Notes under the pieces: generated by a model
Seen by the model: the letters and a program-made list of their open reading frames with translations, nothing else
Told to the model about the DNA's origin: nothing
Database searches by the model: none
NCBI GenBank assembly: GCA_963801745.1
Contig: CAWDFY010000002.1
Location: 294,931 to 358,930 of the forward strand
DNA length: 64,000 nucleotides
Direction: 5' to 3'
DNA from: an uncultured Chloroflexia bacterium
GTDB lineage: Bacteria; Chloroflexota; Limnocylindria; Limnocylindrales; CSP1-4
Shown: piece after piece, positions 38,708 through 56,259 of the stretch
How positions within the stretch are numbered: position 1 is the first letter of the stretch
Layout of the letters: every line of letters begins with the position of its first letter
Made by a program: the position numbers and the translations under genes

Positions 38708-38776
38708 CGTTCGCGAGTGTGGCCGGCGACGCTCACCCGCGGCTCAACGGACCGTCGGACTGGCACACTGACGGCG

Positions 38777-41496
38777 ATGCCCCTCGAGGAATACCGTCGC
38801 AAGCGCGACTTCGGCAAGACCCCGGAACCGGCGCCGGACACGACCACCGCCGCGAGCGGTCGGAGCGGGCGGTTCGTCGTCCAGCGCCACCGCGCGACGC
38901 GGCTCCACTACGACTTCCGCCTCGAGATCGACGGCGTCCTCGTCTCGTGGGCCGTCCCGAAGGGCCCGACCCTCGATTCGAAGATCCGGCGGATGGCCGT
39001 CCACGTCGAGGACCACCCGATCGAGTACTTCGACTTCGAAGGCGATCATCCCGGCCAAGCAGTACGGGGCCGGCGACGTCATCGTCTGGGACTGGGGCAC
39101 CTGGGACCCGGAGGCGCCGACCCTCGACGGTCGCAAGGCCGTCAAGGACGGCGAGCTCAAGTTCCGGCTCAACGGCGAGAAGCTCAAGGGCCGCTTCACG
39201 ATCGTGCGCACGAGCGGTCGCGGTGGGAGCCGCCCGTTCGAGGGCGACGACGGCGACCAGTGGCTGCTCATCCACAAGAAGGGCGACACGTCGGTCGAGG
39301 GCTGGGACGCCGAGGACTTCCCGAAGAGCGTCAAGACCGGGCGCACCAACGACGAGGTCAAGGAGAACCGCGACGCGATCTGGATCAGCCAGGCGCCCGC
39401 GGCGACCGCCGAGATCGACCTCGCCGGCGCCACGCCGGCGCCCGCTGCCCGACCAAGATCGAGCCGATGCTCGCCACCCTCGCGACCAAGCCGTTCGACG
39501 ACGACGACTGGCTGTTCGAGATCAAGTGGGACGGGTTCCGCGTCCAGACGCGTGGTCGACCACGGCAAGGTCCGGATCCTGACCCGCAACCTCCACGACG
39601 CGACGACCTACTTCCCGCGGCTCCTTGGCGTCGCCGGGGCGCTGGCTCGAGGCCGACCAGGCCGTCATCGATGGCGAGGTCGTGGCGCATCGACGAGGAC
39701 GGCCGGCCCGACTTCAGCCTCCTCCAGACCAAGCTCGGCGACAAGGAGGCGAACGGGCTGCTGTACCAGGCGTTCGACCTGCTCTACCTCGACGGTCGAT
39801 CGCTGCTCGACGTGCCCCTCGAGGACCGCAAGCGCCTGCTCCGAAGCGTGCTCAAGGACCACCCGCGGGTGCGCTTCGCGTCGCACGTGGTCGGGGAGGG
39901 GAAGGCGTTCTTCGACGCGGCCGGCACGCTCGGCGTCGAGGGGATGGTGGCGAAGCTCCGTCGCTCGCGGTACGAGCCGGGCCGCCGCAGCGATGCGTGG
40001 CTCAAGATCAAGATCCGGCCGGAGCAGGAGCTGGTGGTCGGTGGCTGGACCCCGGGGAGCGGCAACGCCCGGGACCTCGGTGCGATGGCCGTCGGCGTGT
40101 ACGAGGACGGCAAGCTGCGGTTCGCCGGCAAGGTCGGCAGCGGCTTCACCGGCGCGATCCGGGCCGACCTCCTCAAGCGCCTCAAGCCGCTGGTCCAGGA
40201 CGACGCGCCGTTCGACCCGCCGCCGCCGAAGGACTACCGTGGTCGATGGGGCGGCGACCTCAAGGACATCACGTGGGTCCGTCCCGAGATCGTGATCCGC
40301 GCCGAGATCGGTGGCTGGACGCGCGACGGCCAGGTCCGCCAGACGGCCTACAAGGGCATCGATGCGGCGCGCGACCCGACGACCGTGACGCGCGAGACCG
40401 CGGTCGCGACGGCCACCGCGGTCCGTGCCGCCGAAGCCGCCGAACCGCCAGCCACCCGAGGAGGCGCCGATGCCCTCGAAGACGTCGAAAACGTCAAAGT
40501 CCGCGAAGTCGTCGAGCGCGACCAAGCCATCGAGCTCGACGTTCCCGGGCGCGACCGCGGAGGAGCTCGAAGCGCTCGACGCGCTCGGCAAGGAGGGCGT
40601 GTGGCGCGTCGGCGGGCGCGACCTGAAGCTCACCAACCTCGACAAGCCGCTGTTCGAGGCCGACCCGCCGGTCACCAAGCGCGAGCTCATCCGCTACTTC
40701 GCGACGATCGCCCCGACGATGCTGCCGCACGTCATCGACCGGCCGCTCAACCTGCAGCGCTTCCCGAATGGGGCGGGCGCGCCCGGGTTCTGGCAGAAGG
40801 ACATCCCCGAGACCGCGCCGACATGGCTCAAGCGCTGGCACGAGACCGGGGTCGACGGGCGCACCGACCGGGACGCGAACGACCACCTGCTCGCGGTCGA
40901 TGCCGCGTCGCTCGCGTGGCTCGGCAACCAGGCGAGCTTCGAGGTCCATGCCTGGACCGGCAAGCTGCCCGAGCCGTGGCAGCCGACGTTCGCGCTACAT
41001 CGACATCGACCCGGGCGAGAAGACGACCTGGGACGAGACGCTGACGCTGGCGCGGCTCTACCGGACCGCGCTCGAGCACCTCGGCGTGCGCGGCTACCCG
41101 AAGACGACCGGCAAGCGCGGCATCCAGATCTGGATCCCGATCGTCCATGGCAAGTACGACTTCAGCCAGACCAGCGAATGGGTCGAGCGGGTGTCGAGGG
41201 CGGTCGGGTCGACCGTGCCGAACCTGATCTCGTGGGAGTGGGCGAAGGCCGCGCGGAAGGGCCGAGCGCGACTCGACTACACGCAGAACGCGTCGATCAA
41301 GACGCTCGTGGCGCCGTATTCCGTGCGACCGGCGCCGGGCGCGCCGGTGTCGACGCCGATCTCGTGGGACGAGCTGGACGACGCGGATCTGCGACCGGAC
41401 CGCTGGACGATCCGCAATCTGCCGGAGCGGGTGGCGGCGGTGGGTGACCTGTTCGCGGCCGCGCAGACCGACGCCCAGGAACTGCCGCCGGTGTGA
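38777..41496 (+). CDS. ligD: NHEJ LigD, order phosphoesterase - ATP ligase - polymerase (several frameshifts; polymerase may be a separate gene from ATG 40470)
   Basis: [16 protein letters not shown]; EIKWDG, EGMVAK, WLKIK; KLTNLDK, RFPNG, KTTGKRG, DYTQN. Confidence 0.9.
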
Positions 41497-41903: not shown

Positions 41904-42870
41904 TCAGGCGAGCGGCCACCTCGTCGACCCACTTGACCCAGTCGAGGCCACGGCGGCCCGGGACGACGAGCCGGCACGGAGCGCCGTTCGCGACCGGGAG
42001 CGGGCCGCCGGCGACACCGGTCGCGAGCAGCGCCGTCCTGGCCTCGTCCGCGGTCAGCACCGTCGACCAGCCGGTCACCGACGAGACGCGGACGCTGCCG
42101 CGCTCGGGGACGTCGATCACCGCGCCGAGTGGCACGCCGCGCCACGTCGTCTCGAGCGCCCAGCCCGAGGTGCAGTCGAGGACGGCCGTCGCGTCGACCT
42201 CGCCGAGCGCGCGCAGCGCGGGCAGGTCGAGCTGGCGGGCGCCGACCGTCAACCGCCACGCCTCGGGGTCGATCGCCGGAGGCCCTTCGCCGTAGAACGT
42301 CGTCGCGGGCGGGATGCCGCCCGACGGCAGCCAGCGCGACCCGGTGAACCGCCGGACGCCGCCGCGCAGCTGGTCGACCAGCGCCGGCCACGCCGAACGC
42401 CGCGACGCCCGGCCAGCGCCAGCCCGCCGCCGGCGAGCAGCGTGCGCCGTCGAGATGCCGCCGCGCGGCGCCACGGTCGCCACCCGCCATCGACGCGGCA
42501 GCAGGTGCAGCACGACCACCGGCACGAGCACCAGCCCGAGCCAGGCGTGGAGCGTCATCACCGTCACCGACCCGACCGCCAGCAGCTCGCCCGACGCCAC
42601 CCACAGGAACCCGCCGGTCAACGCGCCGATCGTCAGGATCGCGACCAGCGTCGCCAGCGTGAGCCGCGGCCATCGACGCGCATCGACCGCCCGCGGCACC
42701 GATCGTCGCAGCTTCCAGACCGTGGCCGCGAGCAGCGCACCGCCCAGCACCCCGTGGAGCGTGAACAGCCAGGCCGCATCGGGCCCGCCGGCCTTGAGTG
42801 CCAGCAGCCCGGTCGCGGCCATCGCCACGACCAGCAGGGCGAGCACCCGGTCGAGCGTCGCGTGGCTCAT
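41904..42870 (-). CDS. Membrane-bound molybdopterin-dependent oxidoreductase (MsrP / sulfite-oxidase-like)
   Basis: Four TM helices then LDCTSGW, NGAPCRLVVPGRRGLDWVKW. Confidence 0.78.
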
Positions 42871-42931
42871 GACGCGGCCAGTGTGCGCCCGCATCTGCGA
42901 CGGGTCGATGACTCGTGGGACGATGCGCGGC

Positions 42932-44167
42932 ATGCCGAGCGACATCACCCTGCGCAGCCCACGCCCCGACGAGATCCGCGAGTTCTGGCAGCCGCTGGCC
43001 GATGCGTTCGGTGAGTCGATCACCGACGACGAGATGGAGCGCGAGCGACCGCTGCTCGACCTCGAGCGGTTCGTCGGCGCGCTCGACGGCGAGCGATGGG
43101 TCGGCACCGGCGGCGCCGTCGCGTTCCGGCTGACCGTGCCGGGCGGCGAGGTCGGCGCCAGTGGCATCACCGGGATCGGCGTCCGGCCCGACTACCGTCG
43201 ACGCGGCGTGCTCCGCCAGATGATGGACTGGGTGTTCGACGACGCGCGGGAGCGCGGTGAGCCGGTCGCGATCCTGCTCGCGACCGAGGCGGCGATCTAC
43301 CGGCGGTTCGGCTTCGGCCTGGCGACGACCCAGTCGTCGTTCAGCATCGCCACCGCGCTGGCCGAGTTCCGCGATCCGGTCGATCTCGGCGATGGCGCCC
43401 GGATCCGGATGGTCGACGTCGACGAGGCGGTCGATACGTTCGCGCGCATCTACGACCAGGTGCGGCCCGGTCTGCCGGGCGCGGTCGACCGGACCGAGCC
43501 GAAGTGGCGCGGCTTCATCGTCGGCGACGCCGAGTGGATGTATCACGGGATGGGGCCCAAGTTCCTGGCGCTCATCGAGGTCGACGGCGAGCCGCGCGGC
43601 TATGCGATCTACCGCATGGAGCAGGGTTGGGGCCCGACCGGACCGGCGTCGACGATCCACGTCCTGGAGGTGACCGGCCTCGACCCGTCCGCCGAGCAGG
43701 CGCTCTGGCAGTGGCTGTTCGAGCTGGACCTCGTGCGGACCGTGTCCGGCCCGCGAGGACCGGTGCCGCATCCGCTCCAGCAATGGATCGTCGAGCCGCG
43801 CCGGCTGGTGCTGTCGATCGGCGATGGGCTGTTCCTGCGGCTGCTCGACCTGCCGGCGGCGCTGTCGGCGCGCGGCTACGTCGGGTCGGGCTCGCTGGTG
43901 CTCGAGGTGGCCGACGACCTGTTCGACGCGAACGCCGGCCGATGGCAGCTGTCGGTCGAGGATGGCCGAGGCTCGGTGGCGCGGACGTCAGCGGCGCCCG
44001 ACATCGAGCTGGACGTCGGCACGCTGGCGCAGGCCTACCTGGGCGGCTTCCGGTTCGTGGACCTGGCGGTGGCGGGGCGGGTTCGGGAGTGCGTGCCGGG
44101 CGCGCTGGCCCGTGCCGACGCGCTGTTCACCCCGCCGCGAGCGCCGTACAACTCGACGCCGTTCTGA
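42932..44167 (+). CDS. Eis-family GNAT acetyltransferase with SCP2-like C-terminus
   Basis: VRPDYRRRGVL, ATEAAIYRRFGFG, LRLLDLPAALSARGY, LAQAYLGG. Confidence 0.88.
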   Translation: MPSDITLRSPRPDEIREFWQPLADAFGESITDDEMERERPLLDLERFVGALDGERWVGTGGAVAFRLTVPGGEVGASGITGIGVRPDYRRRGVLRQMMDWVFDDARERGEPVAILLATEAAIYRRFGFGLATTQSSFSIATALAEFRDPVDLGDGARIRMVDVDEAVDTFARIYDQVRPGLPGAVDRTEPKWRGFIVGDAEWMYHGMGPKFLALIEVDGEPRGYAIYRMEQGWGPTGPASTIHVLEVTGLDPSAEQALWQWLFELDLVRTVSGPRGPVPHPLQQWIVEPRRLVLSIGDGLFLRLLDLPAALSARGYVGSGSLVLEVADDLFDANAGRWQLSVEDGRGSVARTSAAPDIELDVGTLAQAYLGGFRFVDLAVAGRVRECVPGALARADALFTPPRAPYNSTPF

Positions 44168-44213
44168 GTTCAGGGGATCGACGATCTCGATCGATCTGAT
44201 CATGCTCCCGAGC

Positions 44214-44465
44214 ATGAGCGCGGCCGAGTTCACGACGCTCGACTTGATCCTCAAGCGTCACGAAGAGGAGCTGATCGAGGAAGCGCTGGCCGACTTGCCA
44301 GAGTTCGTCCTCGAACGCCAGCCACGCGTGATGTTCGAGAACACCGGCATGGCGCTAGGTCGGTGGCTGATGTTCGGTCGACCACCGCAGGTCGAGTGGC
44401 TCGAACTCAGCTCGATCTCGTACTACGTGCTAACGGAGCGGTTCGTGGTCGGAGACACCACCTAG
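44214..44465 (+). CDS. Small hypothetical protein at the edge of the lower-GC island
   Basis: 83 aa open frame with plausible composition; no recognised family. Confidence 0.45.
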   Translation: MSAAEFTTLDLILKRHEEELIEEALADLPEFVLERQPRVMFENTGMALGRWLMFGRPPQVEWLELSSISYYVLTERFVVGDTT

Positions 44466-44505
44466 CGGGCCGCCTCTGGCATACCCTGGCCGTCGGAGGG
44501 CGGCC

Positions 44506-45264
44506 ATGGACCTCGATTCGCTCCTCATTGCAGCGGCGGAAGCACCCCCGGACACTCGCATCAACTTCCGGGACCGGATCGCGGCCCACGGAGAGGTGGC
44601 CGTTGCCCGCCTCACGGAGCCGCCGTGGATCGGTGATCCGCAGTACGCAGCCTTCGCGATTCGAACGATCGCGAAGGCAAGCGAATTCGGAGCCCGCGAT
44701 GCTGCCATCAAGGCTCTAACCCATGCTTTGTCGCTCGTATCCGACGACTGGCACCGCCGCGATATCGACTCAGCTCTGAGCATGCTTGGTGCGAAGTCGC
44801 GACCGCAGTCCAAGAAGAATCACAAGGAAACGATCGCCAGAACCTCCGCTCCGATAGCTCCGGAGGACTTGACCGTCGGGCACTGCTATAGGCGATCGGA
44901 ACTACATGACGGTGGACTCGGCGGGAACCGACAAAAGGGCATCAGCTATCCGGCTCTCGGGACCCACTGCCTGCTGTTCAGCGATCCCAACAAAGTGAAT
45001 GAGTACGGCTACCGCGACCAGCCAATCGGCGAGGACCGCTATCGATACTTCGGTGAATGGGATGGTCCTGGCGATATGACGATGTCTGGTGGTAACAAGG
45101 TAATCGTGGATCGAAGTCCGGAGCTCTACCTATTCACTTCGGCTTCGTGTGGCCGCGTCTATCGAGGACGCTACAGGTTCGACTTTTCGGCGAATGAGCG
45201 AGCGACCCGCGACGGCCAGGAATTCAATGCCATCGTGTTCACGCTCGAGCGGGTCAGCGAATGA
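44506..45264 (+). CDS. Helical N-terminal domain plus SRA-like (McrA-type) modified-DNA recognition domain, no nuclease domain
   Basis: YRRSELH..GG.RQKGISYP, LLFSD, YGY.D, YFGE, GDM...GGNK, LYLF, IVFTL match the SRA module seen in SRA-HNH enzymes; GGAGG SD. Confidence 0.75.
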   Translation: MDLDSLLIAAAEAPPDTRINFRDRIAAHGEVAVARLTEPPWIGDPQYAAFAIRTIAKASEFGARDAAIKALTHALSLVSDDWHRRDIDSALSMLGAKSRPQSKKNHKETIARTSAPIAPEDLTVGHCYRRSELHDGGLGGNRQKGISYPALGTHCLLFSDPNKVNEYGYRDQPIGEDRYRYFGEWDGPGDMTMSGGNKVIVDRSPELYLFTSASCGRVYRGRYRFDFSANERATRDGQEFNAIVFTLERVSE

Positions 45265-47237
45265 CCGAGTCCGACTACCCACAATCGGCACACGGCTGGA
45301 GCTCTGACTTCCCGAGGTTCTCAGAGACCCCGGCCCCATACATTCGTCAGTCTCTTCTTGACTTCTTGAAGATCGTCTCGCCCGAACAAGTACGTGCTTG
45401 GGATGAGTCGATCCCGTCCCTTCAATCTGAAGTCAAGGAGGTGCTCGTCCACGACCCAGGGGCAACGGCATACACCGCCATCCTGGAATACCAACTCCCG
45501 ATGGAAAGTCGCCGACCGGATGTCATCCTCCTGATGGGCGGGGCAATCCTCGTGTTGGAGCTCAAGAGCAAGAGCCATCCAGAACTCGCTGATGTCGATC
45601 AGGCGAGCGGGTACGCACGGGATTTGCGCGCCTATCACAGCGCGTGCGCTGACCGACGGGTTCTGCCGATCCTCATGTTGATGCGAGCGTCAGGCCGCCT
45701 CGGTGACCTCGCGGGTGTGGACGTCATCGGCCCGGACGCCCTGGATCAGGTCATGGCCGCGATCGATGCCCAGGGTGTTGACCGCGTCGATGCCCGGACA
45801 TTTCTGGATCCGAACGCCTATCGTCCGCTGCCTACGATCGTCGAGGCCGCTCGAGAGCTCATGGAGTCGGGTGAGCTCCGTCGTATCGGGCGGGCAGACG
45901 CGGAGACCCGTCCGACTCTCGACTACCTCTCGCAGGTCGCTCACTTGGCGGCGCGGACGCACTCGCGCCACCTCGTCCTCCTAAGCGGGTTGCCCGGGAC
46001 GGGCAAGACCTTGGTTGGCCTGCAGCTCGCTCACGCACGGTTCTTGGACGATCTGTCGGTCGCGCGCGAAGGCCAGAAGCCGACGGCACCGGCCGTCTAC
46101 TTGTCTGGCAACGGTCCGCTCGTGCAGGTGCTGCAGTACGAGCTCAAGGCCGGAGGCGGCGGTGGCGCGACTTTCGTGCGTCCTGTCAAAGCCTACGTCG
46201 AACGCTATTCAAGGCAATCCCACCTACGACCACCCGAGCATGTTCTGATCTTTGACGAAGCTCAGCGCGCATTCGACGCTGCTCAAGTTGCTGCAACGCA
46301 TGGCGGGACCGGCGATGGGAAGTCCGAACCCGAGCACTTTGTGGAATTTGCGGAGCGTGTGCCGGAATGGTGCGTCGTCGTGGGTCTCATCGGTTCTGGC
46401 CAAGAGATCCACGTCGGAGAAGAAGCAGGTATCGGCCAGTGGCGAGACGCCGTCATGGGTGCTCCTAACCCGGACTCGTGGACTGTTCATTGCCCACCCC
46501 ATCTCGCGGACTCGCTTAGTGGCGTACCACGACTAGTCCAGGAGCCCCGACTACATCTGACCGCTGAACTGCGCTACCACCTCGCTGAAGACGTGCACCT
46601 GTATGTCCAAGCCCTACTCGGAGAAGCTGACCTGCCCGCGGCATCGTTGGCCGCACAACTGGAGGACAGCGGGTATCACGTCCGGATCACCCGTGACCTT
46701 GACGCGGCGAAAACCTACCTTCAGACCCGTTATGAGAGCGATCCAGATGCGCGCTTCGGGCTGGTCGCGTCGTCGAGAGACTCCAGCCTGCCGCGATTCG
46801 GAGTTCCAAACGACTGGCAATCGACCAAGCGGGTCCGTCACGGGGCCTGGTTCGGTGAGGGGGAGAATGACCCCGTAGGTCGTTCCTGCCGGCTGCTTCG
46901 TGAGTGCGTTACAGAGTTCGGCTGTCAGGGCCTTGAATTGGATGCGGTATTGCTGGCTTGGGGCACTGACTTCATTCGCGAGAGCGACCATTGGACGAAC
47001 CGCCACGCCAGGCGATACCAGAGTCCCGCGAGCATCAAGGACGCCTTCCAGCTCCGGCGGAACGCGTACCGCGTCCTCTTGACGCGGGCTCGAGACGTCA
47101 CCGTGGTCTTCGTGCCGCCTCTCGCCAGTCTCGATGAGACCTATCGCTACTTGCTCGATGCCGGCATGCGAGACCTAGACGCCGATCAACCCGAGTTGCG
47201 GCCCGCGAGTCGTGTGAACTCCTCGAGGCGTCCGTGA
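45261..47237 (+). CDS. PD-(D/E)xK nuclease fused to DUF2075 SF1-like helicase/ATPase
   Basis: EYQL..RRPDVILL...VLELK..QASGY; GLPGTGKT, IFDEAQR, QGLELD, NAYRVLLTRAR; ATGA overlap with the SRA gene. Confidence 0.85.
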   Translation: MTESDYPQSAHGWSSDFPRFSETPAPYIRQSLLDFLKIVSPEQVRAWDESIPSLQSEVKEVLVHDPGATAYTAILEYQLPMESRRPDVILLMGGAILVLELKSKSHPELADVDQASGYARDLRAYHSACADRRVLPILMLMRASGRLGDLAGVDVIGPDALDQVMAAIDAQGVDRVDARTFLDPNAYRPLPTIVEAARELMESGELRRIGRADAETRPTLDYLSQVAHLAARTHSRHLVLLSGLPGTGKTLVGLQLAHARFLDDLSVAREGQKPTAPAVYLSGNGPLVQVLQYELKAGGGGGATFVRPVKAYVERYSRQSHLRPPEHVLIFDEAQRAFDAAQVAATHGGTGDGKSEPEHFVEFAERVPEWCVVVGLIGSGQEIHVGEEAGIGQWRDAVMGAPNPDSWTVHCPPHLADSLSGVPRLVQEPRLHLTAELRYHLAEDVHLYVQALLGEADLPAASLAAQLEDSGYHVRITRDLDAAKTYLQTRYESDPDARFGLVASSRDSSLPRFGVPNDWQSTKRVRHGAWFGEGENDPVGRSCRLLRECVTEFGCQGLELDAVLLAWGTDFIRESDHWTNRHARRYQSPASIKDAFQLRRNAYRVLLTRARDVTVVFVPPLASLDETYRYLLDAGMRDLDADQPELRPASRVNSSRRP

Positions 47238-47241
47238 TGCT

Positions 47242-47986
47242 TCATTCCGAGATGCCAGGTCCCCGCCGGTAGACCCGCAGCTCGATCACGCTCGGCACGT
47301 GCCACTCGAGCGAATACAGCACTCGACGGCCCGCGGCGTCGACGTCGACCTGCTCGAGGTGCTGCAGCAGCGTTCCCTCCGGGATCGCCAGCACCGCCGC
47401 CAGCTCCGCGTCCGCCGACGGCCGGCTTGACCGCCGCCTCCCCGTGCCGCACCGGATGGCCCCGCGCGGCCAGCAGCGCGTAGATCGACCCGCCGAGCGC
47501 ATCGCGATCCCGCTTCGCGTCGACCACGTCGGCCGGCATCCGGTCGATCGAGTAGACCGCCGGGCGGCCGTCCGCCGTCCGGACGCGGATCAGCTCCACG
47601 ACCAGCAGGCCCGGCTCGACCTGCAGATGCTCCGCGACGTCGTCGTCGGCGGGGACGGTCTGCGACGCCCAGGATCCGCCGCCCGGCCGCGCACGCCGGT
47701 CGACTCGAGGTAGGCCGTGTACGAGAAGTTCGTGTCGAGCGAGTTGCGCAGCAGCGGCCGGGCCGTCACGAACGTGCCCGAGCCCTGCCGGCGGACGAGG
47801 TAGCCCTCCTCGGCCAGGCCGCGGACGGCCTCGCGGATCGTCGGCCCGGCTCACCGCGAACCGCTCGGCCAGGGCGTCCTCGTTCGGCAGCTTCGAGCCC
47901 GGCTCGTAGTCGCCGGTGATGACCGCCCGTCGCAGCCCGTCGCGGACGACATCGGCAAGCAGCGGCCGAGCGATGGCCCGCGCCAT
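47242..47986 (-). CDS. GntR/HutC-family regulator with UTRA domain (frameshifts)
   Basis: KLPNEDALAERFAVSR, RRQGSGTFV, LIRVRTADG. Confidence 0.85.
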
Positions 47987-48906
47987 CAGGAGGCGCCGTC
48001 GGCGGGCTGCGCCGTCGCCAGGGGAACGCCGGCGACGGCCGCGTCGCCCTGCTGCACGATCCCGACGCCGGCCCGCCGCTGGCCGCGCCGGTACACCAGC
48101 CCGGCCGTGACCATCGCCAGGATCGTGACGGCGAGCAGCACCGTGGCGATCGCGTTGACCTCGGGGCTGACCCCGCGCCGGATCGAGGCGAACAGGTAGA
48201 TCGGCACCGTCTGGTCCTGGCCCGAGGTGAAGAACGCGATGATGAAGTCGTCGAAGCTGAACGTGAACGCGAGCAGGGCGCCCGCCACGATCGCGGGCAG
48301 CAGCTGCGGCAGCGTCACCTGGACGAACGTGCGCCACGGCGACGCGAACAGGTCCTCGGACGCCTCGATGAGCGTCCGGTCCATGCCCCGCATCCGCGTC
48401 CGGACCAGCACGTTGACGATCGCCATCGTGAACAGCGTGTGGGCGGCGATGACGCTGGCGGTGCCGAGCCCCAGCTCCGGCCCCTGGCTCGACGTGAAGT
48501 AGGCGATCCACGGGTTCACCCAGTCGAGCGCGGTCACGATGAAGATCAGCGTCGCGATGCCGATGACGATGCCCGGCACGATGATCGCGACGTAGGTCAG
48601 CAGCTCGAACAGGAAGCGCAGCGCCGAGCCCATGCGGTCCATCGCCAGCGCCGACGCCGTCCCGAGGATCGTCGCCAGCACCGCCGTGATCGACGCGATC
48701 GTCAGGCTGTTGCCGAGCGACTCCATGAGGAACCGGTCCGACCACGCCTCGGCGTACCACTTCGTCGAGAAGCCGAGCAGCTCGGTCACGTGCCGGCCGG
48801 CGTTGAACGAGTACACGACCACGATGAGGATCGGCAGGAACAGGAACGCGAAGACGAGGGCCGTGTAGAGCCGCGTCAGCCGTTCGCCCCAGCGCTCGAG
48901 CCTCAT
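47986..48906 (-). CDS. PotC-like ABC permease
   Basis: FLPILIVVVYSFN, EASEDLFASP, FTFSFDDF, PEVNAIAT. Confidence 0.9.
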   Translation of the reverse strand: MRLERWGERLTRLYTALVFAFLFLPILIVVVYSFNAGRHVTELLGFSTKWYAEAWSDRFLMESLGNSLTIASITAVLATILGTASALAMDRMGSALRFLFELLTYVAIIVPGIVIGIATLIFIVTALDWVNPWIAYFTSSQGPELGLGTASVIAAHTLFTMAIVNVLVRTRMRGMDRTLIEASEDLFASPWRTFVQVTLPQLLPAIVAGALLAFTFSFDDFIIAFFTSGQDQTVPIYLFASIRRGVSPEVNAIATVLLAVTILAMVTAGLVYRRGQRRAGVGIVQQGDAAVAGVPLATAQPADGAS

Positions 48907-48907
48907 A

Positions 48908-49793
48908 TCAGGCTCGACTCACGACCCGGACCGCACGAGCCGGCGCGTCAGGGCCAGGTAGCCGGCGACCAGCACGATCATCCCGGCCACGAAGACCGCC
49001 GCCAGCGCCGACCCGAACGGCCAGTTGCGGGACTGCAGGAAGAGGTCGGCCAGGGCGTTGCCGAGGAAGTAGGTCTTGCCGCCGCCGAGCAGGATCGGGA
49101 TGAGGTACTCGCCCATCACCGGGATGAAGACCAGCACGATGCCCGACAGGATGCCCGGGCGCGGCGAGCGGCAGGACGATCTGGCGCAGCGTGGCGATCG
49201 GCCCGGCCCCGAGATCGCGCGACGCCTCGAGGAACGAGCGGTCGAGCCGCTCGAGGCTGACGTAGATCGGCAGGACCATCAGCGGCAGGTAGTTGTAGAC
49301 GATCCCCAGCGAGACCGCGAAGGGCGTGTTGAGCAGCTGGATGTCCTCGAACCCGAGCCATCCCAGCACGCGCGGGATGCCGTTTCCGCCGAGCAGCGTC
49401 ATCCAGGCGTACGTCCGGATGAGGAAGCTCGTCCAGAACGGGACGACCACCAGCGCGACGAGGACGAGCTTCCACGTGCCCCGGACCTTGAGCGCGAGCG
49501 TGTACGCCACGGGGAACGCCACCACGGCGCAGATCACGGTGTTGAGCGCGCGCCAGCCCCAGCGTGTTGATGAGCGGGGTGAACCGCGTCGGGAGCGCGG
49601 CGTACTGCTCGAGGGTGAAGCCGGGCGCGTAGCCGCCGTTCGGCGACCGCTCGCCGACCGACATCACGACGAGCACGACGAGCGGCGCGATGAGGAACAG
49701 CAGGTACCACAGCGCGGTGGGCAGGGCGAGCAGGAGGGCGGAGCCGCGTCTCGCGGTCCTCGCCCCGTCCGTCCCGCCCACCGTCGCCGCCAT
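48908..49793 (-). CDS. PotB-like ABC permease (frameshifts near 49550 and 49150)
   Basis: PFWTSFLIRTYAW, YNYLPLMVLPIY, EASRDLGA, NWPFGSA. Confidence 0.87.
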
Positions 49794-49813
49794 CGGTTCG
49801 CCTCAGGCGATCC

Positions 49814-51028
49814 CTAGGCGGACGCCTTGATGCGCGCCCATGCCTCGGCCCGCTCCGGGCTGTTGTACGTGGCGTTGACCGCGTACTCCAGGTTGGCCAG
49901 GGAATCGGCGGATGGGTAGATCACCGGGTTGGTCCGGACCTCCTCGCTGACCAGCGCCGTGGCCTTGTCGTTGGCGTGCGGGAAGAGGCAGAACTCCGTC
50001 TCCCGCGCGGCCTGTTCGGGCTGGAGTGATGCAGTTGAGGAACGCGTAGGCGGCCTCGCGGTGCGGGCATCCGCGGCGATCGTGAAGCTGTCGATCCAGA
50101 GCTCGCCGCCGTCGGTGGCGACGAGGTACTTCGCCTCGGCATTGTCGCGGACGACCTGGACGCCATCGCCGGTCCACGCGACCGACAGCCATGTGTCCTG
50201 CGCTCGCAGCGGCGGTTGGACGTCCGACGAGATCGCGAACAGGTTCGGCTTGAGCGCGATGAGCATCGCCTCGACCGCGGCCATCTCGGTCGGGTCGATG
50301 GTGTTGAGGGAGTAGCCCATCGCCACCGCCGCCGAACCGAACGAGCTGATCTGGTGGTCGACGATGAGCGTCTTGCCCTTGTAGGTCGTGCCGGCAACGT
50401 CGAAGAACTGCTTCCAGCTCGTGACGTCGGGGCTGACCTTCGAGCTCCAGAACGCGATCCCGGTCGTGCCCCAGTTCTTCGGGATCGACACCGCGTTGCC
50501 CTTGTCGAAGGCCTGGTCCATGAACAGCGGGTTCCAGTCCTCCTTCACGAAGTCGGGCAGCTTCGCGTAGTCGAGCGGCTCGATGAGGCTGTCCTTCACC
50601 CAGCCCTCGATGGCGTAGTTCGACGGGACGACGACGTCGATGCCGGAGTTGCCGGCCCGGATCTTCGCCTCCATCTCCTCGGTCGATCCGTACACCTGCA
50701 CGTCGATGGCCACGCCGGTCGTGGCGGTGAACTCGTCGAGGACTTCCTCGTCGTGGTAGTTCGGCCACGTGGCGAGCGTCAGCTCGGTCCCGAGGTCCGC
50801 CGACGCCGCGGCCGACGGGCTCGCATCTCCGCTCGCGGCAGGAGCGCTCGCGGCGGCGCTGCTCGGCGGGGCCGAGGCGGCCGGTGGCGCGCACCCGGCG
50901 AGGGCGATGGCACCAAGCCCGGCGCCCGAGCCCACCAGGAACCCGCGTCGCGACAGCCGTCGCTCGATGGCGAGCGCAGTGATCTCCGCCGGGTCGCGTG
51001 GTCCGATCGTCGTTGATCGCTTCGACAT
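49814..51028 (-). CDS. PotD/PotF-like substrate-binding protein with twin-arginine signal
   Basis: SRRGFL, TWPNY, DVVVPSNY, PKNWGTTGI, ELWIDSF; AAGGAGG SD. Confidence 0.9.
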   Translation of the reverse strand: MSKRSTTIGPRDPAEITALAIERRLSRRGFLVGSGAGLGAIALAGCAPPAASAPPSSAAASAPAASGDASPSAAASADLGTELTLATWPNYHDEEVLDEFTATTGVAIDVQVYGSTEEMEAKIRAGNSGIDVVVPSNYAIEGWVKDSLIEPLDYAKLPDFVKEDWNPLFMDQAFDKGNAVSIPKNWGTTGIAFWSSKVSPDVTSWKQFFDVAGTTYKGKTLIVDHQISSFGSAAVAMGYSLNTIDPTEMAAVEAMLIALKPNLFAISSDVQPPLRAQDTWLSVAWTGDGVQVVRDNAEAKYLVATDGGELWIDSFTIAADARTARPPTRSSTASLQPEQAARETEFCLFPHANDKATALVSEEVRTNPVIYPSADSLANLEYAVNATYNSPERAEAWARIKASA

Positions 51029-51080
51029 CTCTCCTCCTTGGATGACCGTTCGTCCCCCGTGATCGTCGTGGTCGGGTCGC

Positions 51081-51803
51081 TCAGGCACCGTCAGCGACCA
51101 CCTCCCTTCCAGCGGCCGCCGCCGTCATGGCAAGGGCGCACTCGACTTGTTCGCGGACGCTGTCGCCGGCCGGCAGCCGGCGCTCGAAGATGGCGCCACC
51201 GATGGTGAAAGCCCACGCGCCGGCTCGTGCCAGCGCGTCGATGCGCTCCGCCGAGTCGACGCTGCCTGCCGCGACGACCGGCCCGGACGCCGCGTCGACG
51301 ACGGCCCGGACCAGGGCAGGAACGTCGCCCTGCCAGCGGTACGCCAGCAGGTCGAGGCCATCGACGCCGGGGCGGGCCGTGAGCTCGCGCGCGCTGCCGG
51401 CGATCTCGTCGACCGTGCCCTCGAGGATGCTCGGGTGACCGACGACCCGGCCGGGGAACGGGCAGTACCTCGGCCGGCCCGGCGTGCCCGGCGGCCCGAC
51501 CTCGTCGAGGACGGCGAGCGCCTCGTCGGCGTGCGTGCCGCCCATCAGCCAGTCGACGCCGATGTCGAGCGCGGCCCGGACCGAGCGCAGCTCGTCCTCG
51601 GCTCGCTCCGAGACGACCTCGAGGAAGACCTCGCGGCCGTCGGCGCGCATCGTCCGGGCGAGCTCGCGGAGCTCGGCCGGCGGCAGGCCGATGTCCTTGA
51701 ACCCGACGTAGCGGAGGTCCGTGTCGCGGAGCGTCTCGTAGACCTGTTTCGCGTCCGACACCGTCGTGTCGTCGCGGGTCAGCATGAAGATGAACTCGAT
51801 CAC
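51081..51803 (-). CDS. Uncharacterised ribulose-phosphate-binding-type TIM-barrel protein
   Basis: FIFMLTRDD, GFKDIGL, LEVVS, PFPG.V.GHPS, GLDLLAYR, AGSVD, FTIG. Confidence 0.7.
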   Translation of the reverse strand: MIEFIFMLTRDDTTVSDAKQVYETLRDTDLRYVGFKDIGLPPAELRELARTMRADGREVFLEVVSERAEDELRSVRAALDIGVDWLMGGTHADEALAVLDEVGPPGTPGRPRYCPFPGRVVGHPSILEGTVDEIAGSARELTARPGVDGLDLLAYRWQGDVPALVRAVVDAASGPVVAAGSVDSAERIDALARAGAWAFTIGGAIFERRLPAGDSVREQVECALAMTAAAAGREVVADGA

Positions 51804-52622
51804 GACACCTCCTCGAGTCGATCGGCGGGCAGGACCTGGGCGACGCCGTCCAGGACGTAGTCGGGCGTGTAGGCGGCGCCGGCGAGCGCGGAACGCGGCG
51901 TGGCCCCGGTGAGCACGAGCGCCGAGGCCATCCCCGCCTCGTGGGCCATCCGCACGTCGGTCAGCAGGCGGTCGCCGACGAGCAGCGTGTCGGCCGGCGG
52001 CAGCGCGATGCGTTCGAGCAGCGTCTCGGCCATGTGGATCGACGGCTTGCCGACGATCGCCTCGGCCGTGGCGCCGGTCGACGCCTCGATCGCGGCGAGC
52101 ATCGCGGCGCAGTCGGGCAGGTCGCCGTCGGGCGTGGGGCAGAACGGATCGGGGTTGGTCGCGACCAGCCGGGCGCCCGCCCGGATCGCCCGGAACGCGG
52201 CGACCAGCTTGCCGTAGTCGAAGGTGCGATCCCACGACACGACGACGAGGTCGGCGTCCTCCGGGTGGTCGAGGTCGACGATCTCGAAGCCGGCGGCGCG
52301 CACGAGGTCGATGAGCAGCGGCTCCGCGATCGGCAGGATCGTGGCGCCCGAGCGCGTGCGCACGCAGGTAGCGGATCAGCGCATCGGTCGACGTGACGAC
52401 CTCGTCGGGCTTGGCCGGGATGCCGAGGCCGGTGAGCTTGGCGGCGTAGGTCGCCGGTGCATCGAGCGGCTTGTTCGTGAGGAATGCGACGCGCGACCCG
52501 TGGTCGCGGATCGCCGCCAGCGCGTCGGCGGCGCCCGGGAGCAGCCCGTCACCCAGGTACAGCGTCCCGTCGAGGTCGAAGACGTAGCCGCCGAACATCC
52601 GGTCGGGGCGGCGCGCGGTCAC
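51800..52622 (-). CDS. HAD-IIA phosphatase (NagD/AraL-like; frameshift near 52365)
   Basis: FDLDGTLY, TNK, ATNPD, GKPS, VGDRLLTD, VLTG. Confidence 0.88.
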
Positions 52623-54039
52623 GACGCGCCCTCCAGGATCCCCGATCGATCGAGCAGGCGGTCGATGGTCGCGGGGTCCCAGTCGCCGGCGAGGAAGCGC
52701 AGGTCGGCGACCGTGAACCGATCGCGCATCAGCGGGAGCGCCGTCAGCGCCCATCGAACGACGGCCGCGGTGGCCGGCGGATCGAGGTCGCCGACTGTCG
52801 CCGGCGCGCCAGCCTCGTTCAGGGCGGTCCGCAAGCGCTCCGGCGTGGCGACGAGATCTCGGAGCTCAGCCTTGTGGCGCTCCCAGTCGTCGACGAACGC
52901 CGCGACCTCCGATCGCTTCGCGGCCCAGCGATCGACCTTCCGGCGGACATCCCGCCAGCACTCGTCCGCCATGCGACCGCTCGGATCGATCGGGTCGAAG
53001 GCCTCGCGAACCTGCTCCTCGATCCGACCGGTGTCGGGCGCTGGTCGGCCTCGAGGACGTGCGGATCGAAGCGCTCGAGCGTGTCGTGCCAGATCGTCGC
53101 GGCCAGCACGCTGGCGACGCCGACCTGTGCCCCGTGCAACGCGGTCTCGCGTCCGCCGGCGGCTGCGTGCATGTCGAGCAGGTGGCTGACGAGGTGCTCC
53201 GTGCCCGACAGCGGCGCGGTCCGCCCGGCCACGCCCATCGCGATGCCGGTCAGGCCCATCCGCCCGGCCAGCTCGGCGAGCATCTCGGGGTCGCGGTCGA
53301 TCGTGCGCATGCGCGACGCCGAGGCGAGGACGTCGTCGGCGCCGTCGCGGAACAGCGCGACGACCGTGGGGTCGAACGCGTCGTCCATGCCGGTGGCGTG
53401 GGCGAGGTACCAGTCGGCGGGGGCGGTGAACATCGAGCACAGCTCGCCGAACCCGGCCAGGTGCATCGCGTGCGGCGTCGATGCGAGCACGTCGAGGTCG
53501 GCGATCACGACGTCCGGCCAGCGCGAGGGCACGGTCCGCTTGACGCCGTCGCGGAGCAGGACCGCCATGTCGTCGGTGAAGGCGTTGACCGAGGCGGCCG
53601 TCTGGACGACCACGAACGGGATGTCCCCGGCCCGCATCGAGGCGTCCTTGGCGAGGTCGGTGATCGTCCCCGATCCGACGGCCACGATGCAGCCGACGCC
53701 GGCGATGTGGGTGTCGAGCTCGGCGCTCGCGCTCTCGTCGGCATGTAGGTCCTCGCCCGTGGCGCCCAGGACCGCCGTGCGCGTCGGGAATCGATCGGTC
53801 AGGGCGGCCACGACCTCGCCTTGAGGTCGTCGCCGCGACGCTGCATCGGCGTGTGGTCCATCACGACCAGGACGTCGCCCGGCCGACGGATCTCGGCGAC
53901 GTCATCGGCCACGCAGTCGAGGACGTCGGGTCCGACCCGGATGCGGCGGATGCCGATCGGACGCGCGGTCGCCGCCGCGGACGCGCTCGCGCAGCTCGTC
54001 GAGCGCGGTCGGATCCGGGAGGCCGACGCGGCTCGTCAT
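52619..54039 (-). CDS. sn-glycerol-1-phosphate dehydrogenase-like protein (AraM/EgsA family; several frameshifts)
   Basis: VGSGTITDLAK, TAASVNAF, AGFGE, SGTEHLVSH, LHGAQVG. Confidence 0.82.
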
Positions 54040-55528
54040 GCGGGCGTCCCCGAGAAGCCGGGCTCGACGGCGTCGAACAGCTCGCGGTACCGGCCGTAGG
54101 CGTCGGCGTACGCGGTCGTCGTCGTCGGGTCGGGCTCGTACGCGACCGGGCCGAGCGTCGGCGAGGCGGTCCACGGCCTCGTCGAGATCGGCGAACGTGC
54201 CGGCCCCGACGCCGGCGAGCATCGCCGCGCCGAGCGCCGTCGACTCGTCGGAGGTCAGGACGCGGACCGTCCGCCCGGTCACGTCGGCCTTCATCTGGAG
54301 CCAGAGGCGGCTCCGCGCCCCGCCACCGACGACGCGGATCTCGTCCGCCGCCGAGCCCCATCTCGTCGAGCCGATCGACGATGTCCCGCAGGGCGAACGT
54401 GCAGCCCTCGAGCACGGCGCGGTACAGGTCGGCCCGGCCGTGGTTCAGGGAGAGGCCGGCGAAGACGCCACGCGCGCGATCGTTCCAGCGCGGTGCGGTG
54501 GCCCCGGACAGGGTCGGCAGGAACGTGACGCCATCGGCGCCGGGGGTGGTGTCGGTGGCTGCCTCGGCGTCGAGGTCGGCCACGGTCACGCCGCCACCGA
54601 ACAGGTCCTGGAACCAGCGGACGCTGCCGCCCGAGACGAACCCGGGTTCTCGACCAGCCAGACGCGCGGGTCGGCGTGCCCGTGCGTCTCGACCAGCCCG
54701 GTCTCGTCGATGACGGGCTCGGTCGCGGCGACCGCCACCGGCTCGGCGGTGCCGGTGATGTCGATGACGATCCCGGGTCGGATGCCGCCGGCCCCGAGGC
54801 TGGCGCCATGCTCGTCGCCGGTGCCGACGACGACTCGTGTCGACGGCGTCAGGCCGATCGCCGTGGCCGCAGGTGGCCGCAGGGTGCCGACGACGGTCGA
54901 GGCCGCCTCGATCGAGCCCAGTCGGGTCGTGTCGAGCGCGGTGGCGTCCAGCATCGGCGACGACCAGACACGCTCGGCCACGTCGTAGAGGAGCGTCGAG
55001 GAGGCGTTCGCGTGATCGAGGACGCGTTCGCCGGTCAGCCAGGCGACGAGCGCGCTGCCGGGGAGGAGGAGTCCGACAGCGCGCTCGAAGACGTCGGGAT
55101 GCGCATCGCGAAGCCACAGGATCTTCGGCGCGACGTGCGAGGCATCCAGGTTCAGCCCCGTGATCCGGCGGATCGATGCCGGGTCGAGACCGTCGATGGC
55201 ACCGGCCTGGGCGACCGCCCGCCGGTCGAGCCAGATGATGGCCGGGTGGAGCGCCTCGCCATCGGCGTCGACGGCGACGAGACCGTCGACCTGCGAGGCG
55301 AGGCCGAGCGTCGCCACGTCCGACGGCGCGACGTGCGCGCGTCTCGAGCAGGCCACCGACGACGCGGCCCAGCGCGACGCGCCAGTCGCGCACGTCCTGC
55401 TGGGCCCAGCCGGGGTGGGGGTAGTCGACGTCGTACGCGGCCGAGGCCTGGGCGACGACCGCGCCCGACGGATCGAGCAGCGTGCCCTTGAGGCTCTGCG
55501 ATCCCACGTCACAGCCGATGGCGTACAC
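54036..55528 (-). CDS. FGGY-family carbohydrate kinase (several frameshifts)
   Basis: IGCDVGSQSLK, IIWLDRRA, GTGDEHG, GTAE, FLPTLSGA. Confidence 0.88.
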
Positions 55529-55564
55529 CGTTCGGCGCGCCCTCCCGGGAAGTGCAAGGTCGTC

Positions 55565-55579
55565 AGTCGTCTGACGACT
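55565..55579. promoter_or_regulatory. Probable GntR/HutC operator next to a TATCCT -10 element
   Basis: Perfect palindrome AGTCGTC-T-GACGACT upstream of the kinase operon that ends in the GntR gene. Confidence 0.6.
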
Positions 55580-55626
55580 TAGGATAGGGCGCGCGGGGTC
55601 GGTGTCAACCGCGACGGCGCGTCAGG

Positions 55627-56259
55627 TCAGAGGCGGATCAGGCCCATCAGCGGCTCGCCGGTCGACTGGCGGAAGGTGCTCCGCGATAGGGTCAGCGACA
55701 CGTCGTCGCGGTCCGGATGGTTCGGGTCGTAGAGGCGGAGGGTGGTCGAGCGCGACGCGGTGTCGACGTCGTAGCCGAACGCCAGGACCGTGTGGTCCTT
55801 GGGCAGGTGGAACGGGTTGATGCCGTGGTGCCGGATCAGGCCGACCAGCGCCAATCGGCCACCGTCGATCGAGGATCGGATCTGGGGCAGCTCGACGTCG
55901 AGGGTCCGGCGCTGGAGCCGTTCCGGTGACGACGACGCCGCCAGCCAGAACCGCAGCGGGCCGCGCATCCAGTCGAGCGACAGGACCTGGCGGCGGACGA
56001 TCGACCGGAACAGCGGGGAACCGTTGTCGGGTGCGGTCGTCGTCGACGGGATCGGCAAGCCCGCCTCGAAGCGCTCGCGCACGAACCAGCTCATCCCGCC
56101 GCACAGGCCGGCGTCGGCGTCACCGACACCGACCACGCGTGGGTCGATGAACCCGAGCCGGACCGTCGGGCCGGGCGCGAACCGGTTCGCGAAATGCAGC
56201 CCGTTGCTCGACGGGAGGAAGCCTCGGACGGCGTTCGACACGGGCATCTCGTCGCGCAT
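55627..56259 (-). CDS. Hypothetical protein with papain-like Cys-His-Asp signature
   Basis: GLCGGMS, DHTVLAFGY, LYDPNHP. Confidence 0.65.
   Translation of the reverse strand: MRDEMPVSNAVRGFLPSSNGLHFANRFAPGPTVRLGFIDPRVVGVGDADAGLCGGMSWFVRERFEAGLPIPSTTTAPDNGSPLFRSIVRRQVLSLDWMRGPLRFWLAASSSPERLQRRTLDVELPQIRSSIDGGRLALVGLIRHHGINPFHLPKDHTVLAFGYDVDTASRSTTLRLYDPNHPDRDDVSLTLSRSTFRQSTGEPLMGLIRL

Follow-up and report, generated by a model that had tools for sequence, protein, structure and literature searches.

Two overlapping genes in a 64,000-nt stretch of DNA from an uncultured Chloroflexia bacterium (contig CAWDFY010000002.1, positions 294,931 to 358,930; this whole stretch is referred to as the window) form a cassette that we interpret as a split, ATP-dependent, type IV-like restriction module. 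In this interpretation, to which we assign a probability of roughly 55%, the first gene (g1) encodes a nuclease-free SRA reader and the second (g2) encodes a motor-nuclease of the PDC-S41/Nhi-like kind. The novelty lies in the pairing of a HEAT-like-SRA protein with a PDC-S41 protein, as the g2 family is catalogued, the architecture class of g2 is validated and the SRA family of g1 is known. A preliminary description made from the sequence of this DNA had proposed a candidate undescribed defence system of one SRA subunit and one nuclease-helicase, and the results below bear out its domain assignments while narrowing its claim of novelty.

Conservation of the g1-g2 pair

A scan with a g1 profile over 185,579 species genomes returned 16 close loci, all of them in Chloroflexota (Limnocylindrales/'Chloroflexia' metagenome-assembled genomes, MAGs). 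A g2 homologue adjoins g1 in 15 of these; the 16th locus is a 2.8-kb contig, too short to judge. Among the 301 class genomes sampled, every full-length g1 either neighboured g2 or lay at the end of a contig that truncates g2. The pair was also present on four further long metagenome contigs and very probably on ~19 more, for which the g1 and g2 matches fell on contigs of identical size. The order of the genes is variable (g1-g2, g2-g1 and, in a divergent subclade, convergent) and must have changed at least three times on the g2 tree, with adjacency kept throughout. One protein (P0112) is an in-frame fusion in which the g2 C-terminus is followed by a ~40-aa linker and g1. In the window, the sequence ATGA at 45261-45264 is common to the end of g1 and the start of g2, and the same 4-bp start/stop overlap is found in a metagenomic relative (L065). 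Pairwise divergence of g1 is correlated with that of g2 (Mantel r 0.63, p 2e-4), a value that is inflated by shared phylogeny. Taken with the limits of the insert described below, which holds these two genes only, the adjacency despite flips, the fusion and the correlated divergence support g1 and g2 as one unit at the sequence level, and g1 appears to depend on g2, not the reverse.

The distribution of the family is patchy: PDC-S41 was found in 12 of the 301 genomes and in 9 of 57 genera. An SRA partner is present in ~40-50% of the g2 clade, and elsewhere PDC-S41 is solo. The reader is thus optional and lineage-restricted, an accessory to g2 instead of an obligate partner, because g2 often stands alone, even at the same chromosomal site. 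At one locus (L061; ena:ERZ25039490 contig_25945), we noted the pair in the order g2-g1 among genes for a NERD-UvrD helicase, the toxins HicA and ParE and a Macro-domain protein, a neighbourhood that looks like a defence and toxin-antitoxin island.

g1 encodes a predicted SRA reader without a nuclease domain

The 174 g1 homologues are each ~250 aa in length. Direct scans of the local Pfam, NCBIfam and PADLOC libraries gave no match for g1 itself, and in PHROGs a single unannotated family matches it. An AlphaFold2 (AF2) model built from 36 sequences (predicted local distance difference test score, pLDDT, 92.8) begins with seven helices (aa 1-93), which a disordered linker joins to a beta-rich domain at aa ~120-250. 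When this model was compared with the PDB using Foldseek, the best 40 matches were all SRA domains (SUVH5, SUVH6, AspBHI, TagI, ScoMcrA, MspJI, UHRF1 and UHRF2), with TM-scores of 0.69-0.72 against the SUVH5 SRA domain. When the PDB was searched by sequence, g1 and its full-length profile recovered only helical-repeat designs; the SRA signal surfaced only with a domain-only profile and in the fold search. The SRA-only profile matched the ScoMcrA SRA domain with an E-value of 0.003 and that of SUVH5 with an E-value of 0.32, with the GYxD and YxYxG motifs aligned. In this alignment G168-Y169-x-D171 of g1 corresponds to GGYND of SUVH5 and Y181-x-G183 to IYTG, and these residues are invariant in the family alignments A1 and A3. 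In SUVH5 and UHRF1 the corresponding residues make up the flipped-cytosine pocket.

Family annotation points the same way, with PF26348 (SRA_ScoMcrA) precomputed on most g1 homologues and PF02182 (SAD_SRA) matched by three of 36 family members (best E-value 4.5e-5). The predicted C-terminal domain is therefore best described as a real SRA fold, for which the sequence-profile support is weak but consistent. A total of 37 columns of the family alignment are invariant, including the pocket residues and the N-domain motifs, and the domain architecture is kept down to ~40% identity. The nearest relatives of the g1 SRA domain outside the lineage are winged-helix-SRA-HNH proteins of 387-389 aa (Gottfriedia, Chryseobacterium and a Roseomonas plasmid), which are classical type IV enzymes. 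Among the plasmids of PLSDB the only g1 relative is an SRA-HNH protein, and IMG/VR contained none. Separately, we observed a protein of 345 aa (L044:4446-5480) whose g1-like SRA domain follows an N-terminal region unlike that of g1; it lies ~2 kb from an AAA_23/SMC-type ATPase (L044:259-2253), with which it may form another split reader-ATPase arrangement.

g2 is a member of the PDC-S41 family

g2 matches the PADLOC PDC-S41 model (PDLC05014) with an E-value of 1e-122 over aa 38-628, corresponding to positions 32-633 of the 657 in the profile. PF09848 (SLFN group-3 helicase, formerly DUF2075) covers aa 236-619 (E-value 9.7e-58). In 30 g2 homologues, E76, D87, E100, K102, Q114 and Y118 (PD...ExK...QxxxY) are invariant, as are the Walker A (GLPGTGKT) and Walker B (DEAQ) motifs, and the nuclease residues are also invariant or nearly so in alignments A2 and A4. 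A profile of the N-terminal region aligned ExK..Q..Y with the catalytic motif of EndoMS/NucS (E-value 0.016), HSDR_N was matched by 10 of 14 g2 family members (best E-value 0.0018) and NERD by two. Confidence in the AF2 model of g2 is only moderate overall (pLDDT 66) and low across the nuclease core; the best Foldseek matches of the model are SLFN11, RecD, Dna2, Sen1 and Upf1, all SF1B-type motors. These results agree with the preliminary description, which had assigned g1 a helical N-terminal domain and an SRA domain with no HNH, and g2 a PD-(D/E)xK nuclease with a QxxxY motif in front of a DUF2075 helicase.

Full-length relatives of g2 with 31-34% identity are solitary genes on 47 plasmids of the Bacillus cereus group, where the PDC-S41 proteins align to 94% of the g2 length at 31-32% identity, and one relative lies on an Exiguobacterium plasmid beside McrBC. 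The solo Chloroflexota copies and the Bacillus and Exiguobacterium plasmid relatives also score as PDC-S41. Because these relatives persist as single genes, g2 is probably active on its own.

Table 1. Coordinates of the cassette and of related loci (positions without a locus prefix refer to the window)
Feature	Position	Strand	Remarks
Low-GC insert, ~2.8 kb	44447..47252		exactly g1 and g2 inside; GC trough coincides
Shine-Dalgarno-like motif GGAGGG	44495..44500	+	5 nt before the g1 ATG; read off the sequence
g1 ORF	44506..45264	+	252 aa; HEAT-like N-domain and predicted SRA reader, nuclease domain absent
g1 N-terminal helical-repeat module	44506..44784	+	aa 1-93; conserved RIxFRDxIA, W41/D44/F50
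g1 flexible linker	44785..44859	+	aa 94-118; pLDDT <50 at 102-110; variable and gapped in alignment A1
g1 SRA domain (predicted)	44860..45261	+	aa 119-252
g1 putative pocket residues	Y169 45010-45012, D171 45016-45018, Y181 45046-45048	+	
g2 ORF	45261..47237	+	658 aa; predicted PD-(D/E)xK nuclease and DUF2075/Schlafen-type SF1 helicase; PADLOC PDC-S41 member
g2 nuclease core (predicted)	45438..45740	+	aa ~60-160
g2 nuclease residues (predicted)	D87 45519-45521, E100 45558-45560, K102 45564-45566, Q114 45600-45602, Y118 45612-45614	+	
g2 DUF2075 (SLFN group-3) helicase domain	45966..47117	+	Walker A 45987-46010, Walker B DE 46254-46259
Proteins with the ~190-aa motif domain	L030:4809-5840, L031:4734-5876, L033:4368-5414, L036:4455-5366		
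AddA-like gene	L010:3782-7983, L020:6916-10653, L031:491-4279, L034, L039:1024-4866		

The cassette lies in a low-GC insert

The two genes are set off from their surroundings by composition, with a GC content of 0.57-0.65 over g1 and g2 compared to 0.70-0.74 in both flanks. Nucleotide homology to two genomes of the same genus that are without the pair (G318 and G176) spans 41927 to 44446, and homology to another genome of the genus (G041) starts at 47253, which places the borders of the insert. We conclude that the insert is probably a horizontally acquired two-gene cassette of the nucleic-acid defence type. No direct repeats or mobility genes were found at its flanks, and no promoter or terminator consensus at the cassette. 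A single relative in which the two flanks adjoin, that is, an empty site, was not found; the left and right flanks are kept in different genomes. In G318 the whole stretch 44447-55630, which in the window contains the cassette, the GntR gene, an ABC transporter and HAD-like genes, is missing, with 11 kb replaced by ~1.3 kb. With no empty site among relatives and this stretch absent from G318, the region around the cassette is a mosaic.

The left neighbour is an Eis-type gene (Acetyltransf_9, Acetyltransf_17 and SCP2_2) and the right neighbour a convergent GntR/UTRA regulator. The ORF, GC and domain scans thus confirm the earlier account of two intact, ATGA-overlapping genes of low GC between Eis and GntR, with the correction that an 86-aa ORF (44205-44465) sits between Eis and g1. 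This ORF, which has no family match, is 77-80% conserved at the nucleotide level in same-genus genomes without the pair; we therefore ruled it out as a third component of the cassette and regard it as a core gene of the flank. Neither g1 nor g2 is interrupted, and each matches its family profile over the full length. LigD (38717-41496), the GntR/UTRA gene (47186-48760) and the ABC-transporter genes (48908-51088) are each broken over several frames, probably as a result of assembly frameshifts in an error-prone long-read MAG. The assembly (G000) comprises 5 contigs with a completeness of 77%. Metagenomic relatives have the cassette in the same chromosomal neighbourhood: in L065 g1 and g2 come after LigD, a PIN/RHH pair and Eis, and in L060 after LigD and the 86-aa ORF.

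The N-terminal domain of g1 is a widespread module

The N-domain of g1 resembles only designed helical-repeat/alphaRep proteins in PDB sequence and fold comparisons, and its HEAT_2 matches are weak. A region-restricted search for N-domain homologues returned full-length g1 proteins only. Within the class, residues 5-100 recur in ~35 further genes, all of them away from g2. Worldwide the domain is found in 242 representative clusters (P0241-P0385; loci L030-L047), almost always as the N-terminal part of a protein 100-440 aa long. It is fused to, among others, an OGG-like glycosylase fold (PF21790, E-value 1e-47), PRTase-CE (PF24390) and a UvrD helicase; the remaining partners are domains without a Pfam match. 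One of these, a recurrent domain of ~190 aa with the motif 'YWAMRTS...W.E...GRLRQGWGW...GHILPVE', is PUA/EVE-like by eye and may be another modified-base reader. In addition, an AddA-like gene (UvrD and PDDEXK_1 with a C-terminal Cys cluster, ~1250 aa) adjoins several N-domain genes, one solo g2 and one g1-g2 pair, which may reflect either a variable hotspot or a functional link.

These architectures mark the N-domain as a general module of conflict-type or DNA-surveillance proteins. A docking domain specific to g2 was ruled out, as the domain is common in genomes without g2. A broader possibility is that proteins of the N-domain family are detachable reader or sensor subunits, each of which would lend its own specificity in trans to a helicase-nuclease, PDC-S41 and the AddA-like protein being examples. 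We regard this as distinctly doubtful. If true, it would mean that motor-nucleases have exchangeable specificity subunits, by a logic comparable to that of HsdS in type I restriction, and it would explain how otherwise 'blind' Nhi-like and Schlafen-type enzymes are aimed.

Proposed mechanism and alternative explanations

In the mechanism that we propose, g2 would be the effector, an SF1B-type (DUF2075/Schlafen-like) ATP motor fused to an N-terminal PD-(D/E)xK nuclease, and g1 would be a catalytically inert specificity subunit. The SRA domain would flip a 5-substituted cytosine (5-methylcytosine, 5mC; 5-hydroxymethylcytosine, 5hmC; or a derivative) into a pocket formed by Tyr169, Asp171 and Tyr181. 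By binding in this way, g1 would mark modified foreign DNA and direct or license g2 to translocate and cut, so that the combination of reader, motor and nuclease known from SauUSI-type ATP-dependent type IV restriction would be reconstituted from two polypeptides. Self DNA would be spared because the genome is without a C5 cytosine methyltransferase. The evidence in hand covers the folds and motifs, the family to which g2 belongs, the limits of the insert and a linkage that persists through order flips; a physical interaction between the proteins, the base that is read, the direction of control (recruitment or activation) and the role in defence are the parts of this mechanism that we infer. 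The occurrence of g2 relatives beside McrBC on the Exiguobacterium plasmid and among toxin-antitoxin genes favours the effector role.

A search for C5 cytosine methyltransferases (PF00145) detected none in the host genome or in the 12 PDC-S41 carriers, including the seven with solo g2, while the same search was positive in 48 of the 301 class genomes (16%) and in 9 of 14 control genomes. There is also no methyltransferase gene in the insert. The absence of PF00145 is compatible with a 5mC-directed nuclease. As it extends to the genomes with solo g2, it hints that PDC-S41 itself may be incompatible with 5mC, although the sample is small (n = 12).

Several observations weigh against the split-module interpretation. 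g2 is found without g1 in 7 of the 12 carrier genomes of the class and on two of the three long metagenome contigs that were picked via g2. It is solo even at the same LigD-Eis site, where one metagenomic relative (L064) carries g2 in this neighbourhood with g1 entirely absent, and solo and paired copies are interleaved on the g2 tree. Because solo copies are this common and interleaved with paired ones, g2 does not need g1 and the coupling may be loose. The earlier view of the two genes as one unit holds, with the reservation that g2 is found without an SRA gene in close relatives. In addition, the pair family is limited to a single class of uncultured Chloroflexota. The nuclease assignment of g2 is a prediction from motifs and weak profile matches, in a region where the model is poor. 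The N-domain of g1 is found in many proteins of genomes that do not have g2, so it is not a dedicated dock for g2. The absence of methyltransferases is not significant, as ~12% of 12-genome samples would show none at the class rate. Finally, PDC-S41 is a candidate family only, and our literature search found no paper testing it.

The autonomy of g2 in relatives and on the Bacillus and Exiguobacterium plasmids, together with the many genomes that have the N-domain family and not g2, would also fit two independent defence genes that travel together. In this case g2 would act alone in an Nhi-like manner, and g1 would coat or block modified phage DNA or serve another host enzyme. Clustering of defence genes is common. 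Independent genes are difficult to reconcile with the failure to find full-length g1 anywhere without g2, with adjacency that is retained through at least three order flips, and with the fusion, the 4-bp overlap, the correlated divergence and the two-gene insert. We consider independent genes unlikely.

The fusion of the same N-domain to an OGG-like glycosylase fold, and the location of cassettes beside LigD/Ku and AddA-like genes, raise a different explanation, in which the SRA pocket takes a damaged or unusual base and the helicase-nuclease processes the lesion as part of DNA repair. The patchy distribution (12/301), foreign composition and frequent gain and loss of the cassette do not suit a repair module, g2 belongs to a defence-candidate family that is found beside McrBC and toxin-antitoxin genes, and the closest relatives of the g1 SRA domain sit in SRA-HNH restriction enzymes. 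We judge a repair function improbable.

The logic could also be inverted, with g1 serving as a brake or as a reader of self-markers that binds a modification of host DNA, or g2 itself, and keeps g2 off self DNA while unmodified invaders are attacked. Subunits that only read could in principle protect as well as target, and host damage is a reported risk of Nhi-type enzymes. Set against this are the lack of a methyltransferase in the insert and of a C5-methyltransferase in the host or any carrier, and the persistence of solo g2 in close relatives, because of which g2 is not lethal without g1. Moreover, all characterised bacterial SRA enzymes target modified DNA (2025 restriction review). Inverted logic therefore seems quite improbable. 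A toxin-antitoxin pair with g1 as the antitoxin of g2 was ruled out by the intact solo g2 genes in close relatives and at the same locus. That g1 is a decaying remnant of an SRA-HNH enzyme, now without its nuclease and being lost, would fit its repeated loss and its lack of a catalytic domain but is very improbable given the 174 full-length homologues, the 37 invariant columns, an architecture kept to ~40% identity and an N-domain that is not a degraded HNH or winged helix.

Relation to known systems

For the split-module interpretation, a first comparison is with PDC-S41 itself, a single-gene 'phage defence candidate' in PADLOC-DB v2.0.0, whose model g2 matches end to end, as do the solo and plasmid copies. 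The family is defined as a single gene, whereas here it is accompanied by a conserved HEAT-SRA protein for which PADLOC has no matching model. Two validated anti-phage proteins have the same architecture of nuclease and helicase in one polypeptide. Nhi (S. epidermidis SERP2475) has an N-terminal PD-(D/E)xK nuclease and an SF1B helicase that overlaps DUF2075, and Nhi-like (B. cereus; Millman et al., 2022) has an N-terminal nuclease and PF09848. The parallel with Nhi drawn in the preliminary description is sound at the level of architecture. g2 is not Nhi proper, which was ruled out by the lack of a match between the PADLOC Nhi model and g2 at E<=1; for the PDC-S41 copies of Bacillus, the match to that model is weak and limited to the P-loop. 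Unlike the cassette with g1, Nhi and Nhi-like act as single proteins with no modified-base reader partner reported.

SauUSI combines the same three functions as the cassette, namely a nuclease, a helicase-like ATP motor and an SRA-type 5mC/5hmC reader, again with no cognate methylase. Its restriction is modification dependent (10.1101/2025.10.16.682607; 2025 restriction review). SauUSI is one polypeptide with a phospholipase D (PLD) nuclease and an SF2 motor, in contrast to the predicted PD-(D/E)xK nuclease, SF1 DUF2075 motor and separate reader with a helical N-domain described here. McrBC, like the cassette, is a multi-subunit, nucleoside triphosphate-driven type IV system with reader and nuclease on different polypeptides. 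There the reader is fused to the AAA+ GTPase and the McrC nuclease is separate, whereas in the cassette motor and nuclease form one protein and the reader stands apart, and Pfam, PADLOC and NCBIfam scans revealed no homology to AAA+ McrB or to McrC. The SRA-HNH/ScoMcrA/TagI enzymes, which are the closest relatives of the g1 SRA domain in both sequence and fold, have their own HNH nuclease and do not need ATP, while g1 is without a nuclease.

A link between modified-base readers and DUF2075 proteins has been described for the DUF3427-DUF3883 enzymes (McaZI group), in which PUA-superfamily readers of modified cytosine adjoin DUF2075 NTPases and joint action was proposed (Lutz et al., 2019; PMC6765204). 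In that group the reader protein carries its own nuclease and the DUF2075 partner is uncharacterised; g1 is nuclease-free. The earlier view that the system was undescribed thus has to be narrowed, since g2 is a member of the candidate family PDC-S41 and the connection between a reader and DUF2075 was in print in 2019. The HEAT-SRA and PDC-S41 pair itself was described in none of the sources consulted (PADLOC, the literature search and the 2025 restriction review).

The practical payoff is modest, as the system is limited to uncultured Chloroflexota and its functional steps are inferred. For the wider group, how Nhi, Nhi-like, PDC-S41 and their eukaryotic Schlafen relatives tell foreign from self nucleic acid is poorly understood, and a separate, optional SRA reader offers a clean genetic comparison, g2 alone versus g1 with g2, for retargeting or licensing in trans. 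If the split-module interpretation is correct, g1 would be a rare example of a nuclease-free SRA protein in bacteria, and type IV restriction would gain an architecture in which reader and motor-nuclease are separate proteins.

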